Shown one piece after another: positions 17,556 through 36,843 of a stretch of DNA of 47,307 nucleotides. The stretch is taken from assembly GCA_905234465.1 (NCBI GenBank), contig CAJOHU010000003.1, positions 1 to 47,307 of the forward strand, given 5' to 3'. Position 1 is the stretch's first letter; every line of letters begins with the position of its first letter. Below the pieces are notes generated by a model. The model was not told where the DNA came from and searched no databases. It was given only the letters and a program-made list of their open reading frames with translations. This DNA comes from an uncultured Alphaproteobacteria bacterium (GTDB taxonomy: Bacteria; Pseudomonadota; Alphaproteobacteria; Rs-D84). A program made the translations under genes and the position numbers.

Positions 17556-17586
17556 TGATTTGTTAATTATGATTACGGCGAAATAT

Positions 17587-17633
17587 TGGCACGCCCGGCA
17601 GGACTCGAACCTGCAATCCACAGATTAGAAATC
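17587..17633 (-). pseudogene. Displaced 3' half of host tRNA-Arg(TCT), anticodon loop through CCA (left attachment site)
   Basis: Minus strand reads GATTTCTAATCTGTGGATT-GCAGG-TTCGAGT-CCTGC-CGGGCGT-G-CCA. No D arm upstream; it pairs with the 5' half at 32263-32302. Confidence 0.93.
17623..17633 (+). repeat. att core, left copy (GATTAGAAATC)
   Basis: Identical 11-mer at 32263-32273; equals the 7-nt anticodon loop plus 2 stem bp on each side. Confidence 0.9.
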
Positions 17634-17706
17634 GTCTGAATCCAAACCGATTGTTTACCCAATTTCCGCCCCTTTCCGCCATTTTACCCCCGCCCCAACC
17701 ACCACC

Positions 17707-17731
17707 CTATGTAGCAAATATGTAACATTTT
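17707..17731 (+). repeat. Putative integrase arm-type sites (2 x TATGTARCA)
   Basis: CTATGTAGCAAATATGTAACATTTT is repeated exactly at 32113-32137. Confidence 0.8.
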
Positions 17732-17822
17732 TTATAAAAATTGCTGTCGCATCACCCGTTCAAAAAACGCTTTTTCTACAAAAAGTTTGACAAGTTGCTC
17801 TGTTTATACCATCCTCTTGTCA

Positions 17823-17876
17823 GAGGTTCGGCTGAGGGGTTGCTAATGGTGACTCCAACTGCATTACCTCTTTTTT
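17823..17876 (+). other. Structured non-coding segment ending in a T-run (possible small RNA)
   Basis: GAGGT...ACCTC outer stem, inner GGGGTTGC-TAATG-GTGACTCC stem, then TTTTTT; TTGACA upstream at 17787. Confidence 0.35.
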
Positions 17877-17877
17877 C

Positions 17878-17907
17878 TTGACGTATAGGTGGTTTTTATG
17901 ATATAAT
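17878..17907 (+). promoter_or_regulatory. Putative sigma70 promoter
   Basis: TTGACG-N18-TATAAT; the string TTTTTATGATATAAT recurs at 18003-18017. Confidence 0.55.
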
Positions 17908-18071
17908 ACGTCCCGAAAAGAAGGGTGCAAAACCATAATGGTTGTTGCCCATTTTTTTGTTCCTATAGTTAAAAATTGTAAAAACGTATTACGTTTATGC
18001 TTTTTTTATGATATAATCTGCTTGAAAATAGTGTTTTTTGTGCTACTTATTATAAAACCAAGGGTCAAACT

Positions 18072-19403
18072 ATGTATATTAAACTGCAAAATGTTGGTGC
18101 GATCAAAGAAGCAACGGTTGATTTAACCGGACTGTCTGTTATTGCCGGAAAAAATGGGACCGGTAAAAGCACTATTGGCAAAACTGTTTACACAATAATC
18201 AAATCTATTCAGGAACAAGATAAAATTGTGGCAAAAAAACAGAGAGATTTTATTGAGTGGGCATGCAAAAACATCTACTTTCAGTTACAGGGATTTATAT
18301 CAAGAGCAGCTAGTGTCCAACAATCGGTTAATTCCGATACGGAATTGTTAGAATCTTCGTTTCAATATGGGGCATTTGAACAGCAATTAACACAACATGT
18401 TTTTGAAGAAAAAGATTTGAATACGGCATATGCACTTATAGATTCAAGAATAGTGTCTGTCGATAAATTTTCTGAAATAGTTGACGATCCAACTAAATCA
18501 AAAGTAAAAGAAATATTAAAAAGTATAAAAGATAAGTTGGTACCGATAGATACTGGTACTGCATTAAAAGAATCCTTGCTTTTTATGTATCAAAATGTTT
18601 TTGATGGACAGATTAACAATTTAAAATCACACATAACATCCGAAGTCGATTTTAGCGGATTGTTGAAATATTCCGTATCAAATAATGCTGACACTATGTC
18701 TTTCTCTGACAGGCTGAAAATAACTTATGCTGATACACAAATACAACAAAAAGTATTTCAAGACGCAACTTTTATTGAGACCCCTCTGGTATTGCAGATA
18801 GAAAAAATTAGAAATATTGAAGCACTTCCTATCTATTGGAAAGATTTGTTGAGAAAAGTAACAATGCAATCTATTGATGCAACGTTACAAAATGATAATG
18901 TTAAGGAAGTTGTAACAGATGTATCTAATGCTTTAGGCGGTTCTTTAGAATACAACACAAACACAAGAAGGTTTGAGTTTATAAAGAAAGATTTTGGTAA
19001 TGGTGCAAATGTTTCTATTGGTAACGCGGCATCAGGTGAAAAAATCCTTGGCATATTTCAACGGTTAGCATTAAAGGGTTTGTTCGGTCCAGATAAAATT
19101 TTGATTTTAGATGAACCAGAAAATCATTTACACCCAGAGTGGTTAGCTGTTTTAGCAGAGGTGCTGGTAAAATTATCTATTGCTAAATGTCCTATTCTTG
19201 TTACTTCGCATAGTCCGGATCTGTTGCAGGCTATAAGATATTATGCAAAAAAACATGGTTTATCTCAATTAAAGATGTATTTGGCTGATAGTAAAACGCA
19301 AGTCGTTGAAGATAAAACTGGCAGAGAATACGAAATATTTGATAATTTATCAAAACCAATAAATGACATATTTAAGTTTTCTGTTGAAGAAGCATTTGCT
19401 TAA
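18072..19403 (+). CDS. ABC/AAA-family ATPase (AAA_15/AAA_21-like), putative defence component
   Basis: Walker A GKNGTGKST, signature 'AASGEK', Walker B/D-loop 'LILDEPENHLHPEW', H-loop 'TSHSP'. No TM partner; AT-rich. Confidence 0.85.
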   Translation: MYIKLQNVGAIKEATVDLTGLSVIAGKNGTGKSTIGKTVYTIIKSIQEQDKIVAKKQRDFIEWACKNIYFQLQGFISRAASVQQSVNSDTELLESSFQYGAFEQQLTQHVFEEKDLNTAYALIDSRIVSVDKFSEIVDDPTKSKVKEILKSIKDKLVPIDTGTALKESLLFMYQNVFDGQINNLKSHITSEVDFSGLLKYSVSNNADTMSFSDRLKITYADTQIQQKVFQDATFIETPLVLQIEKIRNIEALPIYWKDLLRKVTMQSIDATLQNDNVKEVVTDVSNALGGSLEYNTNTRRFEFIKKDFGNGANVSIGNAASGEKILGIFQRLALKGLFGPDKILILDEPENHLHPEWLAVLAEVLVKLSIAKCPILVTSHSPDLLQAIRYYAKKHGLSQLKMYLADSKTQVVEDKTGREYEIFDNLSKPINDIFKFSVEEAFA

Positions 19404-19406
19404 TGG

Positions 19407-19955
19407 GTGGAATACGGTTTAACTATGCCAGATTATACGCGTTTTAAGAAAAGTTTTTGTGATTGTTGCAAAACCAAGAAAGATGGTAAATGTTTGCTTG
19501 GAATACAGCATTCTCGAACGATTCGTGATCATATTGACTTTATAGATTGGGAAGCCGTTATGGACACAAAAGGCCCCAATGAGCATGATTTGCCGAGATG
19601 CGATTCTGTTTATTTTCGTGATAATATAACATTTTTTATAGAACAAAAAAACGCAAAATGCTTTTTTGTCGATAATAGCTCTGAACCGAAAGATCCAGAG
19701 GATTTTACAGAGATTTTATTTGCAAAATTTGAAACATCTAAACGAATATTTGGGGAAGACGCTAAATTGTCAGATAAGATAGAATATGTTTTTTCTTATG
19801 ATTTTAACGATATTAACGAGCAAAAAAGATCTTTTTTGGAAAGAAATTTAAGGAATATATTTTTTGTGCGTTTAGATCTTAAGGGGATAATATATGGAAC
19901 TTGTGACCAAGTTGCTTATCATACAATACATGGCACAGAAATTGAAACTTTATAA
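19407..19955 (+). CDS. Hypothetical protein, possible PD-(D/E)xK nuclease partner of the ATPase
   Basis: 'PRCDSVYFRDNITFFIEQKN' fits D...ExK spacing; starts 3 bp after the ATPase stop (start codon uncertain). Confidence 0.5.
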   Translation: MEYGLTMPDYTRFKKSFCDCCKTKKDGKCLLGIQHSRTIRDHIDFIDWEAVMDTKGPNEHDLPRCDSVYFRDNITFFIEQKNAKCFFVDNSSEPKDPEDFTEILFAKFETSKRIFGEDAKLSDKIEYVFSYDFNDINEQKRSFLERNLRNIFFVRLDLKGIIYGTCDQVAYHTIHGTEIETL

Positions 19956-19983
19956 AAAACGTGGTCAATTGACCACGTTTTTT
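19954..19983. terminator. Bidirectional terminator / perfect 30-bp palindrome
   Basis: AAAAAACGTGGTCAATTGACCACGTTTTTT between two convergent stop codons. Confidence 0.8.
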
Positions 19984-22517
19984 TACATCATCTCGTAATC
20001 TTCGTGACTTAGGACGGTGTCGAATAAACCAACGCCTTCGCCTTCGTGTTTATTGATACCAGAGTATTCCAAACTTGCGTCTTCATAACGTTTGAATTTG
20101 TATACAGCATCGTTCATCAAGGCGTCGTTAAACACCCCAAGGCTTACCAACAATTCAAAATCTTTCACATCTAAACCGGTAACCTTTTTGAATAACCCTG
20201 GTTCCAATTGCGTAATAACGTCTTTTAACGTGCGTTCACGATAATCGGTCAGATACATAAAGATTGGCACGCGGGTCGCAAACTTTATCAATTTTTCCTG
20301 AATCTGTTTGCGTTTAGATTTGAATTCCTTTTCCTCTTCGGACAATTCTTTCTTTTCTTTTTCGGTCAGCTTACGTTCATTGGCTTTTTGTTTCTTTTCT
20401 TTGATTGCGTTGGATTTGTTGATGATGGTTTCGATATCTTGATTCAGACTGCGGAAACCCTCGATACTCATCAATGCTTTCATTGCTTTTTCGTTGCTCA
20501 TCAAACGCATCAAAGTAGCATTATCCACATTGACCAACAAAGCACTTTCCCAACGGCGTGCTAGCAATGTTGCGCTGGTACCACTCATTGCCATATCAAG
20601 TATTTCACCGGCATTGACCTGACGCATAGCACTGCCGTCATAAGCCAGCACCGGTAAGAAGTTGATAAATTCAGCGACTTTCTTTTCTGGGTCGCTTTCT
20701 TCAACGTTCAAACGGCAACTATAATCCGTTATTTGTCGCAACGCACGATCTGGTGCAAAGTCGAAAATATAGCATTCTTCTTTCATTATTTGCGTGGCAT
20801 TTGGATGTTCGCCATCTGGATTCTTAATAACCCACGGTGTTTGTACGCGAAAAGCGGCTTGGAAATACGTTTCTGGAGTCTTTAAGTTTCTTAACATAAA
20901 GATACCCGACCAAGGTTTAACAGACACGCCAGTGGTCAATTTTCCACACGATAAAGTGATGGTCTTGGTTTCCAATGGGTTGTCCATTGTTTCAAATACT
21001 GGCAATAATGCTTTCTCGCCGATGCCAGCTTCTGTTCCGGCGGCAATGATTATCTTATAGTCATGATAAAACACATTTTGACGACGTTTCAGCAGGTTTG
21101 CCATGGCATAACATGCCGCAACCGATGGCAAGAACCAGAACGTGTGCGACAATATACCCAATAAACGAGTATCTGCGAAAGGCATAGGTGGTTTCTTGGC
21201 CCCCATTTTCAGATTATCAACGGTTGTTTCCATCAAATTGCCACGGATAAGATCCAACCATTTCTGTACTTCATTTTCATATTTGAATTTGGCATTTTTA
21301 CCTTCGCCTTCGGCTTCAAAGAATGTGTTCAGATCAAATTCATCAAATTCGCCACCCAATGCAACATTACGGATGGATTCTGGTAATTGATATGTCATCA
21401 TCACCATGCGCGGCAAAGCAGCATAAGGGTTAGTTTCCGGATCTAGCCATTCTTCTTTGGCGCGTTGTTCATCAGAATAAGTCCAGTTATAAATCTGTTC
21501 TTCAATGAATTCACCACTGTTTATCGCACGGAAAGGTGTACCGGATAAATACAGATAGTGCGATGTTGTAATTGGCATATTTGATTCATCAAAATAATCA
21601 ATCGCCTCGCCATTTGCAGCTTTCTGTTCAGCCTTGGATTCATTCTCAAACAAATCTTTCGCATTTTCACGCCACGCACCATAATGATATTCATCAAATA
21701 TAACGCAATCCCAGTTCGTCCCGTGAACCCATTCATTTTGCGCTTTGATACCACCGGCTTCATTTTTGCCCAGATAATCTTGGAACGACCCAAAACAAAC
21801 AATAGGACGATTTAAATCCAAATGTTTCACAGATTCCATAAACTGTTCTGTGGATTTATCTTTCTTGGAAACAAATTGCCATCCTTCAAAATCTTTGTGT
21901 GTATTCAGGTCAGATTCCCACGCTTGCTGAACGGCCGGTTTGAATGTTAAAACCAAAATCTTACTCCAGCCCATGCGTTTGGCCAGTTGATATGCAGTAA
22001 AAGTTTTTCCAAAACGCATCTTGGCGTTCCACAAAAAGTGAGATGTTTTGCCCGGATTTTCTTTTGCCCATGCCTTAAAATACGCGATGGTTTTATCAAC
22101 GGCTTCCTGTTGTTCCGGTCGCATACCGAAATCTTCGGTGCGCTGGACCTCCAAAGAATCGCCATGTCGCAAAGCAACAATTGCCGCCATAACATCAGCT
22201 TCGGAACATTTGAACCATTCGGTCAATTTATTATCCTTGTCGTGCAACTGAATAAAGCCATGATTGCGTAACAAACGATGGACGTCTTTATCTGTAAACA
22301 CAGAACCATCTTCACGAATGGCCGGTTCATCAATTACAATCTTGTACGGCTTTTCACCGGGTTTCAGTATTGGATATTGTTCGGCAACACGATCAATCGC
22401 GTTTTTGGTGGTATAACCAACCTTTAACATACCCACATATTGCGGATTGTTATCACAATATGCATAGATAGTCGGATTTAAATTCGGCCGTGCCGGAAAT
22501 AATACTTTCTTTGCCAT
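19983..22517 (-). CDS. Restriction endonuclease-like protein: N-terminal GIY-YIG/T5orf172-like domain plus SF2 (ResIII-type) helicase
   Basis: 'IYAY...LKVGYT...RVAEQ...EWF' nuclease pattern; 'NAKMRFGKT', 'FDEYH', 'LSGTP', 'YFQAAFRVQTP'. Confidence 0.82.
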   Translation of the reverse strand: MAKKVLFPARPNLNPTIYAYCDNNPQYVGMLKVGYTTKNAIDRVAEQYPILKPGEKPYKIVIDEPAIREDGSVFTDKDVHRLLRNHGFIQLHDKDNKLTEWFKCSEADVMAAIVALRHGDSLEVQRTEDFGMRPEQQEAVDKTIAYFKAWAKENPGKTSHFLWNAKMRFGKTFTAYQLAKRMGWSKILVLTFKPAVQQAWESDLNTHKDFEGWQFVSKKDKSTEQFMESVKHLDLNRPIVCFGSFQDYLGKNEAGGIKAQNEWVHGTNWDCVIFDEYHYGAWRENAKDLFENESKAEQKAANGEAIDYFDESNMPITTSHYLYLSGTPFRAINSGEFIEEQIYNWTYSDEQRAKEEWLDPETNPYAALPRMVMMTYQLPESIRNVALGGEFDEFDLNTFFEAEGEGKNAKFKYENEVQKWLDLIRGNLMETTVDNLKMGAKKPPMPFADTRLLGILSHTFWFLPSVAACYAMANLLKRRQNVFYHDYKIIIAAGTEAGIGEKALLPVFETMDNPLETKTITLSCGKLTTGVSVKPWSGIFMLRNLKTPETYFQAAFRVQTPWVIKNPDGEHPNATQIMKEECYIFDFAPDRALRQITDYSCRLNVEESDPEKKVAEFINFLPVLAYDGSAMRQVNAGEILDMAMSGTSATLLARRWESALLVNVDNATLMRLMSNEKAMKALMSIEGFRSLNQDIETIINKSNAIKEKKQKANERKLTEKEKKELSEEEKEFKSKRKQIQEKLIKFATRVPIFMYLTDYRERTLKDVITQLEPGLFKKVTGLDVKDFELLVSLGVFNDALMNDAVYKFKRYEDASLEYSGINKHEGEGVGLFDTVLSHEDYEMM

Positions 22518-22520
22518 GAC

Positions 22521-24029
22521 TTACTCCATTGGTCGAACCATAGATTCAATAAACGCAATTTCATCTTTGGTAAGTTTGTATTTCTTGTATAATTTTTCAT
22601 CAGTCCATTCTTCATTGAAATCTTGCATTGGAACAAATGAATACACCCTAGTTGGCGCATCTTGTGTGTTTTTTATTAACAATACTAAAAATCTGAACAG
22701 TTTAGTTTTAACGTAAGAAATGAAGTTTATGGCTTCTTGCTCGGAGTTAAAAGAATTCATTACACGATACGTTGCAGTACTGGCTGTACCTGGTTCTCCT
22801 ATAAAGGGTTTTCCTAGAACAAGGTAAGGGAAATCGCCCCTTTCACCATAAGCTTTTGCAGTAAAAACCTTCCACTTATCAATTAAATCTGCATTATTTA
22901 CAATTTTTGATTTATCAATGTATCCGTTATTGGGATATGCAAATAATTTAATAGAATTTTTGAAGGGCTTTGCAGAAAAATCACGGAAATTTGTATTTAA
23001 TCCAAAAGGATTTTGTGCACTAATAAAATTATCTAATGTTTCGGCTCGATCCTTTAAAACTTTATTTAATATCGGTAATGCCTCATTAAAACGAACAAAT
23101 TTATCGTCCCCGAATTCAGATAATAGTCTGTCTGCCATAACTTGTTTGTTCTTAAGATGAGAAATAAATTTACATTTCCCTGTGTTATCTCTGTCCCACA
23201 AGAAATAGCATACACCGCCAGATATATCTACCCCAGCAAAACATTCGGTTGAATTAAAAAAATCATGTAAGACACGGATTCTCTGATCGTTTAACATCTC
23301 TTTGCGAAAAGAGTCAAGACCACGCCCCCCACTAAACCACCTACTTGGAATAATCATGGTTAAATATCTAGGGTCCATTTTTTTAGCTTGTTGTATAAAT
23401 TTTTGATAGATCGGCATGGCGGCGGATTTCGCCAAACTATCTTCTTTCTGATTAGAATCTTCAAGACTTAATTGATATGGTGGATTTCCGATTATTACGT
23501 CAAATTTCATTTTAAATGCCTCATTACCATGAATAAATTGATATGCGTGTGTTTCCAGAGCTTCATCACGATCGTATTCTGCCTGGGATGCACCACAGAA
23601 TTTACATTTACCATTTTCCCATGTGTGTTCTGTGCGATTAAATACGATGTTTCCGCTTTCGTTTTTGAATTCGTTACAAATTGAATATTTTCCATTGGCG
23701 TATTTAGAACAGTAAACAGAACGTCGTGACAACATTGATGTAAGTTCGGTAATTGCGATACCATATAATTGTTTTGAATAAATATGATTCAGGCGTTCTT
23801 GTAAATCCGGAATCTTTTTTTCCAATCCATCAATTAGGCGTTTTGCAATTTCACGCAAAAAGACACCACTTTTGCAACATGGATCAAGAAACTTTGCGTC
23901 TGGGTTTGACCATAATTCCGCCGGCAACATATCCAGCATTTGGTTGGCAATGGTTGGTGGTGTAAAGACTTCATCATTGCTAAGGTTGGCCAAACAACTT
24001 AATACATCAGGATTATATTTATTCTGCAT
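22521..24029 (-). CDS. Eco57I-like N6-adenine DNA methyltransferase with C-terminal TRD-like region
   Basis: 'EVFTPP', motif I 'FLDPCCKSGVFL', motif IV 'IIGNPPY', 'MIIPSRW'. Confidence 0.88.
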   Translation of the reverse strand: MQNKYNPDVLSCLANLSNDEVFTPPTIANQMLDMLPAELWSNPDAKFLDPCCKSGVFLREIAKRLIDGLEKKIPDLQERLNHIYSKQLYGIAITELTSMLSRRSVYCSKYANGKYSICNEFKNESGNIVFNRTEHTWENGKCKFCGASQAEYDRDEALETHAYQFIHGNEAFKMKFDVIIGNPPYQLSLEDSNQKEDSLAKSAAMPIYQKFIQQAKKMDPRYLTMIIPSRWFSGGRGLDSFRKEMLNDQRIRVLHDFFNSTECFAGVDISGGVCYFLWDRDNTGKCKFISHLKNKQVMADRLLSEFGDDKFVRFNEALPILNKVLKDRAETLDNFISAQNPFGLNTNFRDFSAKPFKNSIKLFAYPNNGYIDKSKIVNNADLIDKWKVFTAKAYGERGDFPYLVLGKPFIGEPGTASTATYRVMNSFNSEQEAINFISYVKTKLFRFLVLLIKNTQDAPTRVYSFVPMQDFNEEWTDEKLYKKYKLTKDEIAFIESMVRPME

Positions 24030-24702
24030 CTTTCAACCTTTTGTAATCAGTTGGTGGAAATTCGCGCACAGAAACAGGCGACCAGTTACCTTCGCCTGTG
24101 TCTGAACTATTAAAAGTCCCGTTAAATTCGGGGTTAACTAAATGGGCAAAATAATAGTCGCGGCGTTTGAATTTACCCAAGACCATCGACCATTCTGAAA
24201 AAACAATTGGTTTATCGCTGCCGTCTGCGTATTTAAGGGTTAATGCATCGCCCAAGACAATGTTTTTACTTAAAATGAAACGGATAGTTTCAACAAAGTC
24301 CGTTGGAATGCAATCGCATTTGCATTTACATGCGTTGGCATAATTTTCAATGCATATTCCCAACAATAAAGCACGACAGTCGGCAACGTTGTCCGGCAAC
24401 AGGTCAATACCATATATACTGGCCACCGCTAATATGGCATAGCGTTCATAATCGGTTGAATTACGGCGATATCGTTCGGAAACAATCGACAGTTTGCGGC
24501 GTAGTATTTCGGTCAGAAAAGCCCCTTTGCCGCATGCGGGTTCTAAAAAGCGGCTATCTATGCGCTGGGTTTCCTGTTTGACCAGGTCAAGCATGGCATT
24601 AACCTCACGCGGGGCTGTAAAAACCTCACCGTGATTTGCTACACGTTGTTTGGAAACAGTCTGTTTGGTTGAATCGCAATCCTTTTTGCCCGAATGAAAC
24701 AT
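24019..24702 (-). CDS. Short methyltransferase-like protein (SAM-binding half, no NPPY)
   Basis: 'HGEVFTAP', 'FLEPACGKGAFL', 'IYGIDL', 'NIVLGDAL'. Overlaps the start of the next MTase. Confidence 0.75.
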   Translation of the reverse strand: MFHSGKKDCDSTKQTVSKQRVANHGEVFTAPREVNAMLDLVKQETQRIDSRFLEPACGKGAFLTEILRRKLSIVSERYRRNSTDYERYAILAVASIYGIDLLPDNVADCRALLLGICIENYANACKCKCDCIPTDFVETIRFILSKNIVLGDALTLKYADGSDKPIVFSEWSMVLGKFKRRDYYFAHLVNPEFNGTFNSSDTGEGNWSPVSVREFPPTDYKRLKDAE

Positions 24703-24753
24703 TTATAGGAACCCTTTATTGTTCCAAAATTGTAAAATAAAAAAGCCCCAAAA

Positions 24754-25392
24754 TCAACTGTTTTCAAAAGACAAATTCCTATAACAGCCAATCCTTCCTT
24801 TTTGTGATTCAAGAAATCGCGAAATTGTGGGCGGACTGACCCGAATAGTTCTGGCAATTTTGCGTTTAGAAATCCCCGCCGAATACATATTCAGTATTAA
24901 GTCTTCATGGCCGTCAATAATATGACACGTGTTCTTTTGACCGCATGGCCGTCCCAATTTAATGCCCTGAATTCGTAATTTGGCCATTGCCTCTCTGGTG
25001 CGCTGAGCAATAAGGTTGCGTTCAATCTCGGCAGACAGGCCAAATGCAAATGCCAAAACCTTTGATTGAATTGTGTCGCCCAACTCATAGGCGTCTTTGA
25101 CGGTATAAAGCCGCGCACCGATTTTCATACAATGCTCCAGTATTCGCATAATCATGAACATTTTTCGCCCCAGGCGTGAAAGTTCACTGCAAATTATAAC
25201 GTCCCCTGGGTTTAATTTGCGCAACATGCCACCCAGGGCGCGTTGTTCTGGTTCTTTGGTGCCAGAAATACCCGCATCTTCGATGTATTTATCAATACTA
25301 AGCCCCAGTGCGTTGGCTTTGGATTCAATGCCCAGTTTTTGATTTTCACAGTCTTGTTTGTCGGTCGAAACCCGAATATAACCATATATCAC
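24754..25392 (-). CDS. Small serine recombinase (resolvase/invertase) with C-terminal HTH
   Basis: 'YGYIRVSTDKQ', 'SELSRLGR', 'AEIERNLIAQRTREAM...KLGRP'. RBS AAGGAG before the GTG start. Confidence 0.93.
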   Translation of the reverse strand: MIYGYIRVSTDKQDCENQKLGIESKANALGLSIDKYIEDAGISGTKEPEQRALGGMLRKLNPGDVIICSELSRLGRKMFMIMRILEHCMKIGARLYTVKDAYELGDTIQSKVLAFAFGLSAEIERNLIAQRTREAMAKLRIQGIKLGRPCGQKNTCHIIDGHEDLILNMYSAGISKRKIARTIRVSPPTISRFLESQKGRIGCYRNLSFENS

Positions 25393-25464
25393 AATAAACT
25401 CCTTTGGTTCGTTGTTCTATATGCCGTATATTTCGTGTTATTCAAGTAATTATAAGGGGTAATT

Positions 25465-25941
25465 TTATCCCACAAACACAATTCCAAACCATTTGCGTAA
25501 AAGAGTTAGATGGGCGTTATATGTCGTTGCGCGGGATTGTTCGCGCTTGAATTCGGCGATTTCTTCGGCTGACAAGCCAAGTTCCCGTATAAGCCGATTA
25601 GCCAGCCCCATAAGATAGAAAACGTTTCCTTGGGGGCTTTTTAGGTCAATAATGATGCCGGTTGGATACTTTGCGTTGGGTATATTCGGTATTTCGTTGC
25701 GCTGGGTGGCTTTAAGACGTGCGACCATTTGAACAAACTTGTTTTGTATGCGGCGGAGTAGCCATGCCTGGCGACAGGTCAATTTGCCACCGTTTGTTCG
25801 GCGAATTGCGGCTTGTAACTCGCGTAGAGACCGACATGCGGCAAAGTATAGCATAACAAAATCTGTGCGATGGTTGGGCAAAATATCGTCAAAATGCGTA
25901 TATTTCATAGACAATCCTTTTAAGGTTGTCGTATTTGGCAT
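25465..25941 (-). CDS. Hypothetical protein
   Basis: 158-aa ORF (start may be ATG 25908), co-oriented with the resolvase; no motif recognised with confidence. Confidence 0.55.
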   Translation of the reverse strand: MPNTTTLKGLSMKYTHFDDILPNHRTDFVMLYFAACRSLRELQAAIRRTNGGKLTCRQAWLLRRIQNKFVQMVARLKATQRNEIPNIPNAKYPTGIIIDLKSPQGNVFYLMGLANRLIRELGLSAEEIAEFKREQSRATTYNAHLTLLRKWFGIVFVG

Positions 25942-26043
25942 AATCTTTCGCCGCTTGTCCAGTTATTTGTTCTAATAAAACAGATTGCAATGCTGGGCTT
26001 GGTTGTGATAAAATCTTAGGGAGTTAGCCACAGGAGAGCCAAT

Positions 26044-26508
26044 ATGAAAAAAATACTTTTTATATCATTATGTTCACTAATATCTTTTGGGGCGTATGCC
26101 GCAGATATGCCAACCCCGCCAACGGATGGTGGACATGGTGGTCATGGGCCAATGAATATGTTCGCCAATTTAACAGACGAACAAAAATCATGTATAGAGG
26201 CCTATGGGTGCAAAATGCCTGAAAAACCAACAAAGGATGAAAACCAATCCAGACCAGAACCCAGAAATATGGCGGATGGGCGTCCTGATAAAAAACCAGA
26301 TAATGCCCCAGAAAAACCGGATGATGAAAAAAGCAATATGAAGGGTTCTAATCCACCAGAAATGGGAACGGAGCAAAAAGAGTCCATGGATTGTATGCGA
26401 AAGGCAATGGAATCTTGCGGGATTGAAATGCCACAAAGACCCGAAAAACCATCTGGCGAACGTTTTGATGAACAACGTCAATCGGAACGCAAAGTTGGCA
26501 CCAGGTAA
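26044..26508 (+). CDS. Secreted low-complexity Pro/Lys-rich protein with two Cys pairs
   Basis: RBS AGGAG, signal peptide 'MKKILFISLCSLISFGAYA', internal repeat EQK..C...GC/CG.MP..P; followed by a terminator. Confidence 0.75.
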   Translation: MKKILFISLCSLISFGAYAADMPTPPTDGGHGGHGPMNMFANLTDEQKSCIEAYGCKMPEKPTKDENQSRPEPRNMADGRPDKKPDNAPEKPDDEKSNMKGSNPPEMGTEQKESMDCMRKAMESCGIEMPQRPEKPSGERFDEQRQSERKVGTR

Positions 26509-26526
26509 AAAATGTTTTATTGAAAT

Positions 26527-26560
26527 AAAAAACATGGGCACTATGATGTCCATGTTTTTT
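26527..26560. terminator. Intrinsic terminator
   Basis: AAAAAACATGGGCA-CTATGA-TGTCCATGTTTTTT. Confidence 0.7.
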
Positions 26561-26658
26561 GTTATATTTGGCATAATGTTTCGCTACTTGTTCAGTCATT
26601 TCTTTTTACTAGCTATTTTGGGTGTTTGCGGCTATACTTTGGGCAAAGGAAAAAAGAA

Positions 26659-27483
26659 ATGACACAATCGACAAGTATAAAATTATTCGAAGACAAAAAC
26701 ATCCGGACACTTTGGGATGAAGACCAAGAACAATGGTATTTTTCGGTTGTGGATGTTATCGCTGTTTTGACCGATAGTGCTAACCCTAGGCATTATTGGA
26801 ACGTATTGAAAGGCAGATTAAAAGAAGAAGGTAACCAGTCGGTCACAAATTGTGACCAACTGAAATTTCAAGCGGCAGACGGTAAATACTACCTGCAAGA
26901 TGCGGCAACGGCGGAACAATTATTGCGTTTGATTCAATCAATCCCAAGTAAGAAAGCAGAACCATTTAAGTTATGGTTGGCACGTGTCGGTTCTGAAAGA
27001 TTAGATGAAATCGCAGATCCAGAATTGGCAATCAATCGTGCGCTGGAAACTTATGCGCGCAAAGGGTATTCGCTGGATTGGATAAATCAACGGTTGAAAA
27101 CGATTGAAGTCCGCAAACTGATGACCGATGAATGGGACAAAGGTGGCATCAAGAAAGGTCTGGAATATGCAATTTTAACGGACGAGATTTACAAAGGTTG
27201 GGCTGGCATGAATAGTCGCGAATATAAAAAGTTAAAAGGTTTGCACAAAGAAAACCTGCGCGACAATATGAGCAATCTTGAACTGGTGCTTAACATGCTG
27301 GCGGAGGCAACAACCACAGAAATCGCGAAGAAGGAAAAACCGCAGGGATTATCTGCGAACATTCGTGTTGCACGCGAGGGTGCAAGCGTTGCCGGCGATG
27401 CCCGCAAGAAAATAGAAGCCAAGACCGGTAAACCAGTTTTGACCGGTCGCAATGCGAAAAGCTTAAAAAAGATAACAAAATAA
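26659..27483 (+). CDS. Bro-N domain (phage antirepressor-like) protein
   Basis: 'IKLFEDKNIRTLWDEDQEQWYFSVVDVI', 'IQSIPSKKAEPFKLWLA', 'ENLRDNMS..ELVLNMLAE'. RBS AAGGA. Confidence 0.85.
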   Translation: MTQSTSIKLFEDKNIRTLWDEDQEQWYFSVVDVIAVLTDSANPRHYWNVLKGRLKEEGNQSVTNCDQLKFQAADGKYYLQDAATAEQLLRLIQSIPSKKAEPFKLWLARVGSERLDEIADPELAINRALETYARKGYSLDWINQRLKTIEVRKLMTDEWDKGGIKKGLEYAILTDEIYKGWAGMNSREYKKLKGLHKENLRDNMSNLELVLNMLAEATTTEIAKKEKPQGLSANIRVAREGASVAGDARKKIEAKTGKPVLTGRNAKSLKKITK

Positions 27484-27541
27484 ATTTCATCATTTTATTG
27501 CTTTTTCTTGATTTTTACGGATTATGCGGTATTGTTTATGT

Positions 27542-28003
27542 ATGAAAAATAATAATCCGCGTATTATTCATGAACGTTTTGATGCAGAATTTGCAGACAA
27601 TACGAAATGGACACGTGCACGCGTCGAAGTAAAAATTGGCTCTGCTGTCATCTTTGCTTTACGGATGGATAAGAACAATACAACATGGCAACAAATGTTA
27701 GCGTCATGGCCAAAGGATTGTTCGATACGATATGAATGGTTTGAATCTGTTATTGCGGATATTAAATTGAACCCAATTATGTGCGGTTGTGATGACACAT
27801 ATGAAAATTTATATAATGTTTTAGTACATTGGTTAGAATCTGTGGACAGTGTCAAGAATCGAAAATTGTTGATTTTGCACTCATGCAGTTTATCAATGAC
27901 TAAAGTCGGGAAATTGACAGGATTGTCGCGTCAGACTGCAAGTCGTCGTTACACTAATGCTCTGGATGCACTGGTTTGGAGCTTGAATCATCCAAAAGAC
28001 TAA
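27542..28003 (+). CDS. Phage regulatory protein with C-terminal sigma70-region-4-like HTH
   Basis: C-terminal 'SMTKVGKLTGLSRQTASRRYTNALDAL' is HTH-like; start uncertain (27524 or 27542). Confidence 0.55.
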   Translation: MKNNNPRIIHERFDAEFADNTKWTRARVEVKIGSAVIFALRMDKNNTTWQQMLASWPKDCSIRYEWFESVIADIKLNPIMCGCDDTYENLYNVLVHWLESVDSVKNRKLLILHSCSLSMTKVGKLTGLSRQTASRRYTNALDALVWSLNHPKD

Positions 28004-28166
28004 CTAACAACTTAAATCATGAGTTGTCGCATATTTGTGCGCAATCAAAAGCCATCAAAAACAATACATATACTGTTTTGTCGCAAAAGCGTGCATTGCG
28101 CACGCGTATTTTTTATGCATATTTTTGTATATAGACACATCAGAACACGAACCAAAAGGACAAATC

Positions 28167-28379
28167 ATGACAACAATATTATCCAAAGACGAATATATGA
28201 CCGAACGTGCGCTGGCTGAAATGTGGGGATTGAAACGCAATACTTTACAAAAATGGCGTTCGTTAGGTGTTGGACCAAAATTTCTAAAACGTGTCGGACG
28301 CATCGTATACCGGAAACAAGATATAGCCGAATTTGAACAAAACAATATATTCCAACGTACTACAAGCGACAAACGATAG
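28167..28379 (+). CDS. Excisionase/AlpA-like helix-turn-helix protein
   Basis: 70 aa: 'YMTERALAEMWGLKRNTLQKWRSLGVGPKFLKRVGRIVYRKQDI'. RBS AAGGA. Confidence 0.85.
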   Translation: MTTILSKDEYMTERALAEMWGLKRNTLQKWRSLGVGPKFLKRVGRIVYRKQDIAEFEQNNIFQRTTSDKR

Positions 28380-28388
28380 GAAACTGTT

Positions 28389-28973
28389 ATGAAACGGCTG
28401 GCCAATCCAAAATGGGCACTTTTATTGGAAAATATATCACGCGAAGAACGTGGCGATATATTTATGGCTGTCTTAAGGTATCCAGATTTGGAATGTTCAA
28501 GTGCTGTGTGGCCATTTATAAAAGCCGAATTAGATGAAGACGATATTAAATACAAAGCCAAATGTGAACGACTGGCCACGAACAGATTGGCACGTTGGGG
28601 CGAACAGAATTCATCAGATATCAAACAGACTTTATCAGATATCGGACAGAAATCAGACGCAATAGCAAATAGCAAGACCAACAATACAAATACAATAGAA
28701 CAAAGCAAGGCAATACAAAGTCGTGCAAATGATATACTTCAAAAATTATCAAACTCTTTCAGCCCATTACGCACGCCTAAATATCATATAGATAATGAAT
28801 TTTCATTGCCAGAAATCATTAAAAGGAACCGTGATTTGTTACCAGTATTCAAAGAATTTACACCAGAACAACTGGAAAAAGGACAATTGTCATTGATACG
28901 CAAGTGTATGGGACAAGACAAAACAATGGCACAAATCATAGGATGGATAAGGAATGAAGGAAAATTCACATAA
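28389..28973 (+). CDS. Putative replication initiator (replisome-organiser-like)
   Basis: N-terminal 'LLENISREERGDIFMAVLRY', followed by a linker containing 21-bp-period DNA repeats and an A-rich tract; position after the Xis-like gene. Confidence 0.5.
   Translation: MKRLANPKWALLLENISREERGDIFMAVLRYPDLECSSAVWPFIKAELDEDDIKYKAKCERLATNRLARWGEQNSSDIKQTLSDIGQKSDAIANSKTNNTNTIEQSKAIQSRANDILQKLSNSFSPLRTPKYHIDNEFSLPEIIKRNRDLLPVFKEFTPEQLEKGQLSLIRKCMGQDKTMAQIIGWIRNEGKFT
28604..28657 (+). repeat. Iteron-like repeats inside the rep-like gene
   Basis: ACAGAATTCATCAGATATC (28604), ACAGACTTTATCAGATATC (28625), partial ACAGAAATCAGA (28646); period 21 bp. Confidence 0.55.
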
Positions 28974-28978
28974 GTAAA

Positions 28979-29040
28979 AGGTACTGTGACGACCTTTCGT
29001 ACTGAGGGTAACGGCGAGCGCGGCATTTGCCTAGCGACAG
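28979..29040 (+). other. Possible cos-like packaging site
   Basis: GC-rich intergenic patch AGGTACT...GGGTAACGGCGAGCGCGG directly upstream of the TerS-like gene; loosely resembles lambda cosQ/cosN. Confidence 0.35.
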
Positions 29041-29087
29041 AAACAAAAAAACGGTGAACGGTGAACACAAAACAAAAAGGAGCAACA

Positions 29088-29564
29088 ATGTTATTATCAA
29101 GAAGAGAATATGCAGCACATCGTGGGGTTGCGGTATCAGCAGTCCAAAAGGCGATTGAAACGGGACGAATAACCCTGACGGACGGAAAGATAGATCCGGA
29201 AAAAGCAGATAAAGAATGGGCAGAAAATACTAACCCCGTCTATAACAGTCCACGTACAGATGACAGTTCTTCAAATCCTTATCAGAAAAGCAAAATAATG
29301 AAGACGACATACGATGCGATGCTGAAGAAACTGGAATATGAAGAACGAGCAGGAAAGTTAGTCTCTAGAGCACAAGTAGAATCTGATATCTTTGCAGCCT
29401 CTCGGGCTACAAGGGATCATTTACTGATGATTCCGAAGCGTGTTGCGCCACGAATTATCGGTCAAAACAGTATTTCCGAGATCGAATATATTTTGACTAA
29501 GGAAATTACAAACTCATTAACGAGTTTGTGCGACTTATTAACAGGAAAAAATAAAGGAGAATAA
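29088..29564 (+). CDS. Terminase small subunit (Nu1)-like protein
   Basis: N-terminal wHTH 'LSRREYAAHRGVAVSAVQKAIETGRI', coiled coil 'LEYEERAGKLVSRAQVE...TRDHLLMIPKRVAPRI'. RBS AAGGAG. Confidence 0.7.
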   Translation: MLLSRREYAAHRGVAVSAVQKAIETGRITLTDGKIDPEKADKEWAENTNPVYNSPRTDDSSSNPYQKSKIMKTTYDAMLKKLEYEERAGKLVSRAQVESDIFAASRATRDHLLMIPKRVAPRIIGQNSISEIEYILTKEITNSLTSLCDLLTGKNKGE

Positions 29565-29565
29565 A

Positions 29566-29784
29566 ATGACACCAAACGCAAAAACATCTCTTGAAAAAAC
29601 GATAGCATTTTTAAGAAAAAAATCAACCAAGCTATCTGAAAAAGCCGCACTTGAGATGATGGGAAAGTCCGAGTATGAAATGCGCATAATTTGGGACAGA
29701 ATAATGACAGATTTTTGTAATATGGGCATGAAATATTTTATACAAGAATACTGCAAAAATATGCCGAAATCACAGAAACTTTAA
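29566..29784 (+). CDS. Hypothetical protein
   Basis: 72 aa; strong RBS AAGGAG; 1 bp after the previous stop. Confidence 0.65.
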   Translation: MTPNAKTSLEKTIAFLRKKSTKLSEKAALEMMGKSEYEMRIIWDRIMTDFCNMGMKYFIQEYCKNMPKSQKL

Positions 29785-29848
29785 TAGCATTATTCACTGG
29801 ACTTGTGCACTTTTATTAGCAATGTTGTGTGTAATAAAGGGCGTTAAA

Positions 29849-31060
29849 ATGCGGGCACTTAAATGTCAAAAGTTGGTTTTAACAACAGGATTCCTGAACA
29901 AGCTGAAATCCGACATTGATTTGCAGATAACAGATGCGGCCATACCGGGGTTACAATGCCGGTATTCGGCCGCAACTGACCGCAAAGTGTTCTATTTGGG
30001 GTATCGTGTTCGTGGTTCATATCAACAAAAGCATATGAAACTGGGATCATTGACAGAGTTTAGTTTGAACGAAATTCGTGCTCGTGCGATAAAGACAAAA
30101 CAAGACATCGCCAATGGACTAGATCCACAGGCAGAACAACGTATGCGCATAAAGCAAAACGAAATGCTTGAGGCGCGACGTAAACAAGTCCAGGAATTAA
30201 CCCCAATATTTATGGAAAAACATTGCCGCGAAAACAATCGGGCGAATACTTATAAATCAAATGAAGCTTTGATGCGTTTGTATATAATTCCATATCTTGG
30301 CGATAAATACATTGCAGATATTGATTTGTGCACAATCCAAGACATGTACGACAAAATCAAAAATACAAAAACCGTTGCGGTTGCACTGCATGTTATGCGG
30401 TTATTGTCTACTTTTCTGAATTGGTGCGAAAAATACAATTATCGCCCAATAAATTCAAATCCGTGCCATTTAGTCCAAAAAGCAAAATCCCCAAAGATGA
30501 CCCATACAATCCTGGATATCAATGGCTATAAACGGTTGTTTGATGCGTTGGACGAAGCATATTGCGCTGGGAAATATGCACCACAGGCTATCTTGGCAAT
30601 CAAAACACTTGCACTGACTGGGTGTCGTTGCAGTGAAATAACAGACCTGGAACGGGACGAGTTAGACCTGGAAAACGGGTATCTGCATTTAAACAAACGC
30701 AAAACAGATGCGTTTAATGTGCCACTGGGCGATCCAGCAATAGAAGTTATAAAACAGGCTTTGAGAATTTGTAAAAGTAAACGATATGTATTTCATTCGC
30801 CAATCGACCATACGCGTCCATTAACAGATTTGCGTAAAGCATTCTGGTGGGCATTGGATCGTGCAGGGTTGCCACGAATGCGCATACACGACTTGCGTCA
30901 TTCCTTTGCAACACTGGCAACCAGTATGGGCGAAGATATAAGAATATTAAAAGACGTACTGGGACATACCAAAATCACCACGACAGAAATCTATGCACAT
31001 GCGTCAAGTAATGCCGCACGTCGCACCGCAAACAATGTTGCAAGCATGATAACAGGATAA
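29849..31060 (+). CDS. int: Tyrosine integrase with N-terminal arm-binding domain
   Basis: 'ITDAAIPGLQCRYSAATDRKVFYLGYR...KLG' arm domain; catalytic R (TGCRCSEI), HDLRH, LGH, Y (TEIYAH). Confidence 0.95.
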   Translation: MRALKCQKLVLTTGFLNKLKSDIDLQITDAAIPGLQCRYSAATDRKVFYLGYRVRGSYQQKHMKLGSLTEFSLNEIRARAIKTKQDIANGLDPQAEQRMRIKQNEMLEARRKQVQELTPIFMEKHCRENNRANTYKSNEALMRLYIIPYLGDKYIADIDLCTIQDMYDKIKNTKTVAVALHVMRLLSTFLNWCEKYNYRPINSNPCHLVQKAKSPKMTHTILDINGYKRLFDALDEAYCAGKYAPQAILAIKTLALTGCRCSEITDLERDELDLENGYLHLNKRKTDAFNVPLGDPAIEVIKQALRICKSKRYVFHSPIDHTRPLTDLRKAFWWALDRAGLPRMRIHDLRHSFATLATSMGEDIRILKDVLGHTKITTTEIYAHASSNAARRTANNVASMITG

Positions 31061-31098
31061 TTTAATAGAGTTATGTTTTACACGCTAACGGCGACTGA

Positions 31099-31650
31099 TT
31101 ATTTATTACGATCTGGCCACCATTTATCTAACACAGCCAATACATCAACTGTACGTGCATACATATAATCGTCATTGGTGGGATACTTTTCAAATAAACC
31201 ACCATATTCTTTTATGTAAAATTTATCACGAACACTTTCATTTATTGGATTTAATAATAAAGCCACACCACAAAAATTGCGAACAACGCGTTCAAACATT
31301 CTCAATGCATACAACATCAATATTCTACTGTATTTCAGTCCGCTCATATGTTGCTGGCTGCAAAATTTGTTATCTATTGCAAAATGCCCCAGTAACACAC
31401 CCGACAACCATTTGCCCATACCCTTAAATTTTCTTTTACGGATACTATGATTATTTGTATTTTTTATGGAATGCGGTAATAACGTGAAAAAGCCGACGAC
31501 ATTATCATCTTGAAACAAAAAATACGCTTTACAGGCACGCACATCTATGTCTGTTTGTAATTGTTCTTTGTAATATCTGTTGATCTGAGAATCTTTACAC
31601 TCAAACTCTGGAATAGAGTTATTGGGCATCCACGCGACAAACTTTAACAT
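31099..31650 (-). CDS. GNAT acetyltransferase resembling AtaT/TacT-type toxins
   Basis: 'FECKDSQINRYY', 'VVGFFTL', 'VLLGHFAIDNKF', 'LLLNPINESVRDKFY'. The acetyl-CoA loop is atypical. Confidence 0.6.
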   Translation of the reverse strand: MLKFVAWMPNNSIPEFECKDSQINRYYKEQLQTDIDVRACKAYFLFQDDNVVGFFTLLPHSIKNTNNHSIRKRKFKGMGKWLSGVLLGHFAIDNKFCSQQHMSGLKYSRILMLYALRMFERVVRNFCGVALLLNPINESVRDKFYIKEYGGLFEKYPTNDDYMYARTVDVLAVLDKWWPDRNK

Positions 31651-31783
31651 TCTCTATGCCCCTAAATATATTCTGTGCGCGTTTAACCATTGTAGCATCA
31701 ACAGGCTTTTTCAGATTACTGAAAAAACTTGCATCAGGTGTACTAACACCCTTAACACCAAAATTATTACGCATATTTTTCAT
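31619..31783 (-). CDS. Small hypothetical protein overlapping the GNAT start (antitoxin candidate)
   Basis: 54 aa from ATG 31783 with AAGGG RBS; overlaps the GNAT gene by 32 bp. Confidence 0.45.
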   Translation of the reverse strand: MKNMRNNFGVKGVSTPDASFFSNLKKPVDATMVKRAQNIFRGIENVKVCRVDAQ

Positions 31784-31950
31784 AGGTTTACCCTTATATC
31801 TGTTTGCACTTTGGCACAAGAAACGTTACGAGTCAAGCAAAGGAATATAAAATTCTCCCTCATCCTTGTCTGCAATTATACCACAAATTGACGCAAAAAT
31901 CAATAGCATTTTATGCTTAACGATTCATTTTAGCACAAGGTTTGAACTTA

Positions 31951-31976
31951 AAAAGCCCCGAACATTCGGGGCTTTT
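31951..31976. terminator. Terminator downstream of the element-borne tRNA-Arg
   Basis: AAAAGCCCCGAA-CA-TTCGGGGCTTTT, 5 bp beyond the CCA. Confidence 0.85.
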
Positions 31977-31981
31977 ATATC

Positions 31982-32058
31982 TGGCGTGCCCAGCAGGATT
32001 CGAACCTGCAACCTATTGCTTAGAAGGCAATTGCTCTATCCAGTTGAGCCATGGGCAC
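31982..32058 (-). tRNA. Intact element-encoded tRNA-Arg(TCT)
   Basis: GTGCCCA-TG-GCTC-AACTGGATA-GAGC-A-ATTGC-CTTCTAA-GCAAT-AGGTT-GCAGG-TTCGAAT-CCTGC-TGGGCAC-G-CCA; 77 nt, all stems paired. Confidence 0.97.
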
Positions 32059-32100
32059 TTAACTGTTTTTAAGGAATCCAACGCACATATCGTCCAATTC

Positions 32101-32137
32101 CTATGTAACATTCTATGTAGCAAATATGTAACATTTT
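32101..32137 (+). repeat. Putative integrase arm-type sites (3 x TATGTARCA)
   Basis: CTATGTAACATT followed by CTATGTAGCAAATATGTAACATTTT, matching 17707-17731. Confidence 0.8.
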
Positions 32138-32262
32138 ACATCCATTTGCATACATTTCAATCAATCTGTATCCAGTTTTATACAGAACTGATTTTTGCGC
32201 ACATCCGCACAAATCAGGCGTTTATGCATTCAGATCCAAATCTATCCATAAAAATTACGGAT

Positions 32263-32302
32263 GATTAGAAATCTGTTGCATTATCCATTGTGCTACGGGC
32301 GC
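32263..32302 (-). pseudogene. 5' half of host tRNA-Arg(TCT), including att core 32263-32273 (right attachment site)
   Basis: Minus strand GCGCCCG-TA-GCACAATGGATAATGC-A-ACAGA-TTTCTAA-TC, then non-tRNA sequence. Confidence 0.93.
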
Positions 32303-32312
32303 ACACGTGTAC

Positions 32313-32340
32313 ATTATAAACAATTTTTTAAAAAAAACAA
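32313..32340 (-). promoter_or_regulatory. Putative host tRNA-Arg promoter, pointing into the element
   Basis: Minus strand TTGTTT-N16-TATAAT, ending 10 bp upstream of the tRNA 5' end. Confidence 0.6.
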
Positions 32341-32379
32341 GCAGAACCAAAATATCATCGCGCCCCACCGCGCGGCGTT

Positions 32380-33147
32380 TTATTGTGCAGTTGGCATATA
32401 TATGTTTCCATATGGCACATATGGTGTCGCAGCCGACCCTTCTTCCATTTGATAGTTTGTTAATGCCATATTTCCCTTTCCCGCGGCAAAATATACGACA
32501 TATGTGGCATTATCTTGGGTGGTAAATGTAAATTGTTTATTGACGCTGCCGCTACCGCCAGATTGTCGAACCCACATATAGTGTCCCCCGTTTGGATAAA
32601 ACACCGTTCCGTCTGGTTTTACCGCACGAATATAGTAATAATAAGAACCAGTATATACAATCGTAGTAGATAAAGTATATGTTTTGTTATTCTCGGTTGG
32701 TAATATCTTTGCGTCATTATAAGATTCGCCATTAATTGTGACGGCGACATATGTTGAATTATCCATAAAAGAATCATCCAATAAATTCTTGGTTTGTTGT
32801 GCGGTTGGACTGAACACAGAAATTAATAAACAATCATTATCATAGCACTGAAATTCGCTGTTTATCGCATTTTGTACGGCGGCGTTTACTGTTTGTGCGT
32901 CAACCAAAGATTTTGGTTGATTGTCAAATGTTGCCGATGTTGTGTATATGTCTTTTTTGCCGTACGTGCCTTCAACCCCGGTATTGGTTAATACTTGGTT
33001 TGCACCGGTTGTTGTTGCTTCTATTTTCGGTTGCTTTTGTGAAACACCTTCATCCACATAACCCATTGATGTCGGAATATTTTCGCCAACCCCAAATGCC
33101 ACGCCAAAACAAAACATCAGATATAAAGACACCAGAATTTTTTTCAT
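32380..33147 (-). CDS. Secreted fibre/adhesin-family protein with C-terminal carbohydrate-binding-like domain
   Basis: Signal peptide; 'GENIPTSMGYVD..VSQKQ.KI...VLTNTG..GT.G.K.IY...SLVDAQTVNAAVQNAIN' module; C-terminal 'QMEEGSAATPYVPY'. Confidence 0.65.
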   Translation of the reverse strand: MKKILVSLYLMFCFGVAFGVGENIPTSMGYVDEGVSQKQPKIEATTTGANQVLTNTGVEGTYGKKDIYTTSATFDNQPKSLVDAQTVNAAVQNAINSEFQCYDNDCLLISVFSPTAQQTKNLLDDSFMDNSTYVAVTINGESYNDAKILPTENNKTYTLSTTIVYTGSYYYYIRAVKPDGTVFYPNGGHYMWVRQSGGSGSVNKQFTFTTQDNATYVVYFAAGKGNMALTNYQMEEGSAATPYVPYGNIYMPTAQ

Positions 33148-33543: not shown

Positions 33544-33582
33544 TTTGATATTCCCCTTTCCCTGGATTTCCAATACTTACAT

Positions 33583-36839: not shown

Positions 36840-36843
36840 ATCT

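Follow-up and report, generated by a model that had tools for sequence, protein, structure and literature searches.

A probable case of tRNA-dependent integration in gut Alphaproteobacteria: an island that splits the host tRNA-Arg(UCU) gene and carries a complete tRNA of the same anticodon

Islands and prophages that target tRNA genes in the classical manner, as catalogued in Islander (PMC4383910), carry the displaced segment of the gene, and one of their junctions regenerates it. tRNA-dependent lysogeny has been shown by experiment in mycobacterial phages (Guerrero-Bustamante & Hatfull, mBio 2024, PMC10865867). As set out there, it combines a tyrosine integrase, a bacterial attachment site (attB) in a single-copy tRNA gene, a core of about 10 base pairs (bp), and no rebuilt tRNA; for integration to be viable, the phage must supply a tRNA of the matching isotype under its own promoter. 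The phages concerned are Fionnbharth and other Subcluster K4 and Cluster L actinobacteriophages, and the authors asked how common the strategy is outside actinobacteriophages. For phages of the Rhizobium leguminosarum vTRX32-1 group (Ford et al., Front Microbiol 2021, PMC8631192), a 12-bp core in tRNA-Leu is described as bounding the prophage. Their phage-borne tRNA-Leu is described as being without the core motif and was proposed to replace the interrupted gene and to prevent super-integration. This article concerns an integrase-bearing island of 14,640 bp in an uncultured alphaproteobacterium of the lineage Rs-D84 (assembly GCA_905234465.1). The island lies in contig CAJOHU010000003.1, of which positions 1 to 47,307 (forward strand) were analyzed; this whole stretch is referred to as the window. 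The island has split the host tRNA-Arg(UCU) gene at a short core in the anticodon loop without rebuilding it.

The longest string common to both junction regions is the 11-mer GATTAGAAATC (plus strand). Its two copies, at 17623-17633 and 32263-32273, are identical at 11 of 11 bases, and the length of the island is counted between these direct repeats. When the 14,640 bp are removed in silico, ARAGORN calls a 76-nucleotide (nt) tRNA-Arg(tct) with a normal cloverleaf, containing a G1-U72 pair and a 3-bp D stem. On the minus strand, the first 40 nt of the tRNA run up to 32263, and its last 47 nt start at 17633. The 5′ part is formed by the right core copy together with 32274-32302 (32263-32302, minus strand). 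The displaced 3′ part, from the anticodon loop to CCA and including the left core, occupies 17587-17633 (minus strand). Both assignments draw on the sequence and on relatives. The host promoter region, read from the sequence, is located at 32303-32345 (minus strand), with TTGTTT at 32340-32335 and TATAAT at 32318-32313 separated by a 16-nt spacer. In the window as it stands, ARAGORN calls three tRNAs, none of them at either island junction. The single one in the island region is a 77-nt tRNA-Arg(tct) at 31982-32058 (minus strand), which is also the sole tRNA called when the island ends are circularized in silico.

The rebuilt tRNA is not a chance fit, because eight related genomes (G102, G063, G100, G070, G116, G068, G139, and G119) hold this 76-nt tRNA-Arg(tct) gene intact. 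Their 3′ halves are 94-100% identical to 17587-17633, with 100% identity in G102, G063, G100, and G070, and their 5′ halves plus promoter are 84-93% identical to 32263-32341. A sequence-only reading of the window had proposed that the two halves join into a 76-nt gene and that neither junction regenerates a whole tRNA. Both proposals are borne out by the ARAGORN calls and by the 11 shared bp, and the reconstructed gene exists intact in relatives. The host promoter at 32313-32340, also proposed there, stands in part: the motif is conserved upstream of tRNA-Arg in relatives but was not flagged by a consensus scan.

The 77-nt tRNA is complete (Rfam tRNA, 73 bits) and is situated about 204 bp inside the right end, close to the figure of about 205 bp given in the sequence-only reading. 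A terminator of its own, likewise predicted, is seen as a GC hairpin with a T run at 31950-31972 (minus strand), read from the sequence and unlisted by the consensus scan. An Rfam search of the window and of two relatives' loci returned nothing beyond tRNAs. Across the whole assembly (904 kb in 32 contigs, 94% complete), ARAGORN finds 41 tRNAs, among which 31982-32058 is the only one with a tct anticodon, a point that had been raised as a question. AGA makes up 763 of the 8,888 arginine codons in 343 long open reading frames (ORFs). Nine further Arg-tRNA-like hits, checked in five more genomes with the island (G035, G019, G028, G017, and G006), have acg, cct, or ccg anticodons. Copies of the carried tRNA differ exclusively in the D loop or T loop, never in the stems, and its anticodon stem is wholly different from that of the split host tRNA.

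Between the core and the carried tRNA, the right arm of the island contains a sigma-70-like site (TTGAAA, 16 nt, TAAAAT; 32160-32133) with 10 of 12 consensus matches. The 25 aligned arms retain the two hexamers with slight variation, the second lying directly against the first arm-type repeat. The carried tRNA thus probably has its own conserved promoter, and it therefore need not depend on the captured host promoter, from which it had been thought to be transcribed; of that idea, the conserved host motif stands, but the arm holds a site of its own.

The two arms belong to the attachment site of the element (attP). The left arm (17634-17770, minus strand) contains an arm-type repeat block at 17707-17731. 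The right arm (32059-32262, minus strand; 204 bp) contains three arm-type repeats of about 11 bp (32101-32133) in addition to the promoter-like site. The two arms share an identical 25-bp block (17707-17731 and 32113-32137), and the left arm beside the core is conserved at 80-90% in 12 other genomes. The tyrosine integrase gene (29822-31060, plus strand; Phage_integrase 7e-24, Arm-DNA-bind_3 3.5e-10, SAM_3) encodes an N-terminal arm-binding domain and is full length with all domains present; 442 homologues were found. The arms have the layout expected of arm-type integrase sites flanking a core. Integrase domains (PF13356, PF14659, PF00589) and repeats (17707-17731, 32101-32137) match a lambda/P4-like organization.

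The same arrangement recurs across the genus, for which 257 genomes are available. A match to the 215-bp right arm is present in 28 of them, and the order host sequence, core, arm is found at 29 right junctions in 27 genomes. A tRNA 5′ half precedes the core in 28 of these 29 junctions, with four or five distinct alleles, and the full carried tRNA follows the core at a distance of 203-205 bp in all 25 junctions uncut by a contig end. Thirteen left junctions, including that of the window, have arm and core in common, and 10 of them run into host-type 3′ halves of several alleles. When joined, the halves are called as tRNA-Arg(tct) by ARAGORN in 10 of 12 genomes. Five close metagenome loci have the same island ends with different cargo, and in a contig of run X3 similarity is lost exactly at the core. 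Identity to G035 is 94.7% over 4.8 kb of the island and 77% at the end of infB, the gene beside the displaced 3′ half; between species, the island thus diverges far less than core genes do. A split target plus a carried tRNA, a layout that the sequence-only reading had suggested might be found elsewhere, is a conserved design.

Some right junctions are less regular. At L077 (G181:C39, near 1490), core, arm, and carried tRNA are present with only 15 nt of tRNA-like sequence upstream, making this the one right junction of the 29 that lacks a tRNA 5′ half; either the island entered a secondary site there or the 5′ half was deleted. G205 (L098, L104) and G115 (L100, L105) have two right junctions each, with differing upstream promoters, and G186 has one arm-linked (L089) and one arm-free (L136) copy of the carried-type tRNA. 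These double loci could reflect two target genes, two strains per bin, or contamination.

The following mechanism would account for the locus. The tyrosine integrase would recombine a short core, GATTTCTAATC on the tRNA strand, with the single tRNA-Arg(UCU) gene of the host. The core corresponds to the 7-nt anticodon loop and two stem bases on each side. As attP shares only these 11 bp with the target gene, integration would destroy the tRNA without rebuilding it. The loss would be offset by the complete tRNA-Arg(UCU) of the island, 204 bp inside the right end, with its promoter-like site and terminator. A whole carried tRNA and a loop-centered core would make hosts usable despite tRNA-Arg alleles that differ elsewhere, and excision would restore the host gene. 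A destructive site-specific island with a complementing tRNA, as in tRNA-dependent lysogeny, is the likely interpretation. From the anatomy, from conservation, and from the mycobacteriophage precedent, we infer an active integrase and a carried tRNA that is expressed, charged, and needed for viability.

Compared with tRNA-dependent lysogeny as presented in PMC10865867, the island has the same kind of arm-binding tyrosine integrase with arm-type sites on both sides of attP. The core is about 10 bp there and 11 bp here, and in neither system does a junction rebuild the tRNA. In both, attB lies in a tRNA gene, single-copy there and probably so here, and the carried tRNA has the same anticodon, its own (here probable) promoter, and a sequence unlike that of the host tRNA. 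Unlike the K4 and L phages described there, the island has no capsid, portal, or large-terminase genes in our scans, it bears defense-type cargo, and its host is a gut alphaproteobacterium. Its tRNA is about 204 bp from the crossover with a promoter that abuts the arm-type repeats, whereas the Fionnbharth promoter is reported to overlap a distant gene. Moreover, the actinobacteriophage case is shown by experiment, whereas this island is known from sequence only. The mechanism fits tRNA-dependent integration; the name lysogeny may not fit.

With the vTRX32-1 group, as far as it is described in PMC8631192, the island shares a short core inside a tRNA and a whole same-type tRNA without the core carried by the element. 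In contrast, the members of that group are phages and use another tRNA in other bacteria, and junctions in G028 and G111 (see below) show that the carried type can be recombined here. Classical islands as catalogued in PMC4383910 use the same integrase class and the same anticodon-loop sublocation; unlike them, the island has 11 bp in common with its target, and neither junction regenerates the gene. The sequence-only reading had presented the arrangement as a different solution, in the sense of a new one. The strategy is already contained in PMC10865867, and the idea of a carried tRNA without the core in PMC8631192.

The surroundings of the split gene bear on whether the island is still mobile. 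In most genomes of the genus with an infB match, including all relatives' loci inspected, the match ends at the infB stop codon and the tRNA-Arg is located elsewhere. In G102, G063, and G070, it is found between homologues of genes that, in the present assembly, have no tRNA beside them and lie at or close to an end of contig C15 or C28. Contrary to what had been supposed, infB is hence not the ancestral neighbor of the tRNA-Arg. The end of infB appears to be a recurrent rearrangement breakpoint in the genus, because the gene downstream differs in nearly every species examined (window 15147-17555; loci L031-L059). For instance, Der adjoins infB in G031, and homologues of the window genes at 36111-37494 adjoin it in G102. 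Close homologues of the Der protein of the present assembly, at 83-85% identity, bear the NCBI name "Alphaproteobacteria bacterium", which speaks against a candidate-phyla-radiation host, a reading first suggested by the ∼0.9-Mb genome. The public runs containing this DNA are animal-gut metagenomes by label. A 759-nt contig of run X1, 96% identical, spans 16889-17647, running from infB across the 3′ half and ending 14 nt into the arm. Since it covers the join, infB and the 3′ half are probably true neighbors in this genome and not an assembly chimera.

On the other side of the island, a 255-amino-acid (aa) ORF upstream of the host tRNA promoter belongs by its N-terminal ∼100 residues to a multicopy family. 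Copies are found in the window (32380-33147, 33160-33573, 47037-47234) and on contigs C11, C13, C18, C19, C22, C23, C28, C30, and C31, most of them within a few hundred bases of contig ends. The family has a weak, below-cut-off match to a head spike-fibre domain of gene transfer agents and phages (E 3.6e-4). It probably breaks the assembly and may drive rearrangements.

Several observations weigh against a mobile island that can return the host gene. Both flanks of the split tRNA differ from those of the nearest relatives, and the displaced 3′ half lacks a terminator; the locus has therefore undergone rearrangement, and excision may not return a normally expressed gene. At 94% completeness of the assembly, a second UCU tRNA is possible. 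The halves can no longer be rejoined in G115, where the 3′ half has decayed, and in G028, where the matching 3′ half is lost; some members of the island family are therefore fixed. No excised form is seen in the contigs of the metagenome runs, and no circular-junction joint is present among the matches listed for them. The integrase search of metagenome contigs returned six loci, of which the five close ones are integrated forms or fragments, and that of viral contigs returned no relative, so no free or packaged form is seen there. A joint of 17622 to 32263 occurs in runs X2, X3, and X5 with a shorter side of at most 36 nt; considered as an empty site, it is read instead as intact tRNAs of other organisms in those metagenomes.

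Rearranged flanks, the lack of a terminator, the decayed or lost halves of G115 and G028, and the undetected excised form would all suit an immobile remnant, fixed after the host swapped its own allele for that of the island, with the halves left as scars. For the island in the window, this is rather unlikely. The integrase is full length with all its domains, and the core copies are still identical at 11 of 11 bases. The 3′ half has retained 100% identity to intact genes of relatives, which points to a recent event, and the island is much more similar between species than core genes are.

The origin of the carried tRNA can be traced in other members of the genus. A tRNA with at least 95% identity to it is present in 47 of the 257 genomes, 24 with the arm and 23 without. 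The island arm is absent from all 23 genomes with the native carried-type allele. Fourteen of these arm-free genomes were examined. In 12, the tRNA comes with a promoter and terminator of its own, and homologues of one or both of the chromosomal genes that flank tRNA-Arg in other species are at most 1.5 kb away. The exceptions are G167, which has an ORF183 homologue (a cargo gene of the island, see below) downstream of the tRNA, and G033, in which the flanking-gene homologue is about 1.3 kb off with two other genes between. The gene of G229 is 100% identical to the carried tRNA and is located between chromosomal genes, with its own promoter and without an island arm. A 97% identical allele is native in G012, G103, G195, and others. 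The carried tRNA thus appears to be a captured ordinary allele and not a specially adapted variant. The sequence-only reading had treated it as belonging to the element; an element-free relative does have it as its native gene (G229), but in the present genome the island is still its carrier. Depending on the species, one and the same gap between two chromosomal genes contains either a 76-nt-type allele, antisense to its neighbors (L060 in G102, L061 in G063), or a carried-type allele in the opposite, sense orientation (L123 in G229, L135 in G103, L005 in G012).

The carried tRNA might mainly serve another purpose, either evading an anticodon nuclease of the host or of a rival that cleaves the resident tRNA-Arg or decoding AGA codons for island genes. 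Its anticodon stem, wholly unlike that of the split host tRNA, and the defense-type cargo of the island would agree with this, and the idea is raised in PMC10865867. It is nevertheless improbable. The tRNA is always coupled to the destructive attP (25 of 25 junctions reaching far enough) and is an ordinary chromosomal allele in other species, and no anticodon nuclease was identified in the island in gene scans that included PADLOC.

The sequence-only reading had also called the carried tRNA integration-proof, which is too strong. Its anticodon arm matches the core at 8 of 11 positions, including TTCTAA. In G028, an island left arm is joined at TTCTAA to a 3′ half of the carried tRNA type. Beyond this half come the terminator and the ORF183 homologue, just as they do beyond the carried tRNA of the window; the arm has here recombined into the anticodon loop of the carried type. 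This arrangement needs two island copies and recombination in the loop of the carried tRNA. The left end of the outer island was searched for within 20 kb and was not found. Similarly, the left arm of G111 is joined to a 3′ half with the anticodon-stem strand of the carried type. No carried-type 5′ half is found at any of the 29 right junctions, and the arm is missing from all 23 genomes in which the carried-type allele is native. The core mismatch of the carried tRNA therefore probably lowers its use as a site without abolishing it, although no statistical weight is placed on these counts, the genomes being mutually related. The orphan left arm of G111 (L111; G111:C4, about 3378-4120) lies about 520 bp beyond an intact native tRNA-Arg(UCU), and its chimeric 3′ half is that of the host itself except for the five anticodon-stem bases, which are of the carried type. 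An attempted derivation of the G111 arrangement from a single event failed, leaving the chimeric 3′ half unaccounted for.

Classical tRNA-restoring integration would make 31982-32058 the regenerated host gene and the halves leftovers from an earlier event or a tandem array. The G028 locus resembles such a case, with the integrase gene 23 bp from a full carried-type tRNA and a duplicated 3′ half of the same type at the far end, and the carried type is native in some species. Still, this explanation is very improbable for the window. Here, no duplicated carried-tRNA 3′ half is present at the far end, and the sole repeat is the 11-bp core. Each half is the counterpart of the other, and together they match the gene that is intact in the nearest relatives; arm plus tRNA occur with four or five different host alleles. 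A metagenome-assembly chimera joining unrelated pieces at the tRNA, which the 32-contig assembly and an infB/3′-half adjacency unique among the genomes examined might suggest, can practically be dismissed, given the same two junction types in 27 independent assemblies and the run X1 contig reaching from infB through the 3′ half into the arm.

Beyond the integrase and the tRNA, the island contains a mixture of defense-type and phage-related genes. Next to the left arm is a candidate defense pair (18072-19955, plus strand), consisting of an ABC-type AAA_21/AAA_15 ATPase that resembles those of several defense systems (443 aa; PADLOC HEC-02A, AriA, PtuA-like) and a 182-aa partner without a family match. 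It is followed by Type IIG-like restriction-modification genes in pieces (19983-24702, minus strand; REase_MTase_IIG, 2.9e-34 and 3.1e-47), namely a T5orf172 plus ResIII protein (844 aa), an Eco57I-type methylase (502 aa), and a 227-aa methylase-like ORF. A serine recombinase of the resolvase/invertase type is encoded at 24754-25392 (minus strand; Resolvase 5e-32). Beside this recombinase, the 227-aa ORF and the 3′ part of the methylase gene lie between imperfect inverted repeats (22897-22925 and 24708-24736), and contigs of three runs contain opposite-strand joints at 24711/24712, in one of the repeats. The segment between the repeats may be invertible, switching the restriction-modification specificity.

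The plus strand further encodes a Bro-N domain protein (26626-27483; PADLOC candidate PDC-S13, phrog_15286), a MerR/excisionase-like small DNA-binding protein as candidate directionality factor (28035-28379; weak matches to phrog_66, 8e-6, and phrog_2474, 3e-5), and a terminase small subunit homologue (29061-29564; phrog_57, 1.1e-29), for which no Pfam or NCBIfam match was found. Downstream of the integrase gene is the variable cargo ORF183 (31099-31650, minus strand; 183 aa, acetyltransferase-like, phrog_1758 3.8e-13). Neither the islands of G017 and G028 nor a run X5 contig, which joins 31062 to 31982, contain it. In related islands on two metagenome contigs (L147, L151), about 6.8 kb of additional cargo separates the integrase gene from the ORF183/tRNA module, a second variable-cargo slot adjoining the attachment site.

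No capsid, portal, tail, or large-terminase genes were recognized among the island ORFs in Pfam, PHROG, PADLOC, and NCBIfam scans. The island looks like a satellite or defense island, not a phage, because it combines a small-terminase homologue and defense genes with no recognized structural genes. Satellites resembling phage-inducible chromosomal islands (PICIs) contain an integrase, packaging-redirection genes such as a small terminase, and a replication module, lack structural genes, and are induced by a helper phage. The island is like PICIs in its size of about 15 kb, its integrase, excisionase-like gene, and defense cargo, and in having a small-terminase homologue without large terminase or capsid. 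It is unlike them in that no replication gene or module, helper phage, or packaging site was recognized for it.

Taken together, the island is a well-supported further case of the published strategy, extended to a probable satellite or defense island in gut Alphaproteobacteria. tRNA-dependent integration is now found in a phylum different from that of the actinobacteriophage hosts and in a probable nonphage element. Within this reduced-genome gut genus (∼0.9 Mb in the present genome), the strategy occurs in about one in ten species (27 of 257 genomes) and involves several split host alleles. For annotation, this means that island finders that look for a regenerated tRNA and a displaced fragment will miss or misdraw such islands, and that in tRNA counts of metagenome-assembled genomes the sole UCU decoder may be island borne. 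Cassettes of integrase, attP, and tRNA could serve as integration vectors. Later natural stages are seen as well, with lock-in after decay of a host half and a second island copy recombined into the carried tRNA.

A further possibility, put forward tentatively and with low confidence, is that these islands drive the turnover of tRNA genes in a genus with one copy per tRNA, in that host halves decay or are rearranged and the island allele becomes fixed. Decay or rearrangement of host halves is seen in G115 and G028 and perhaps in the rearranged flanks of the window. If true, such turnover would account for the scatter of at least four alleles among close relatives and for the opposite orientations of carried-type and 76-nt-type genes found, in different species, in the same intergenic gap. 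The island end would then act as an addiction module, with any loss except precise excision being lethal.

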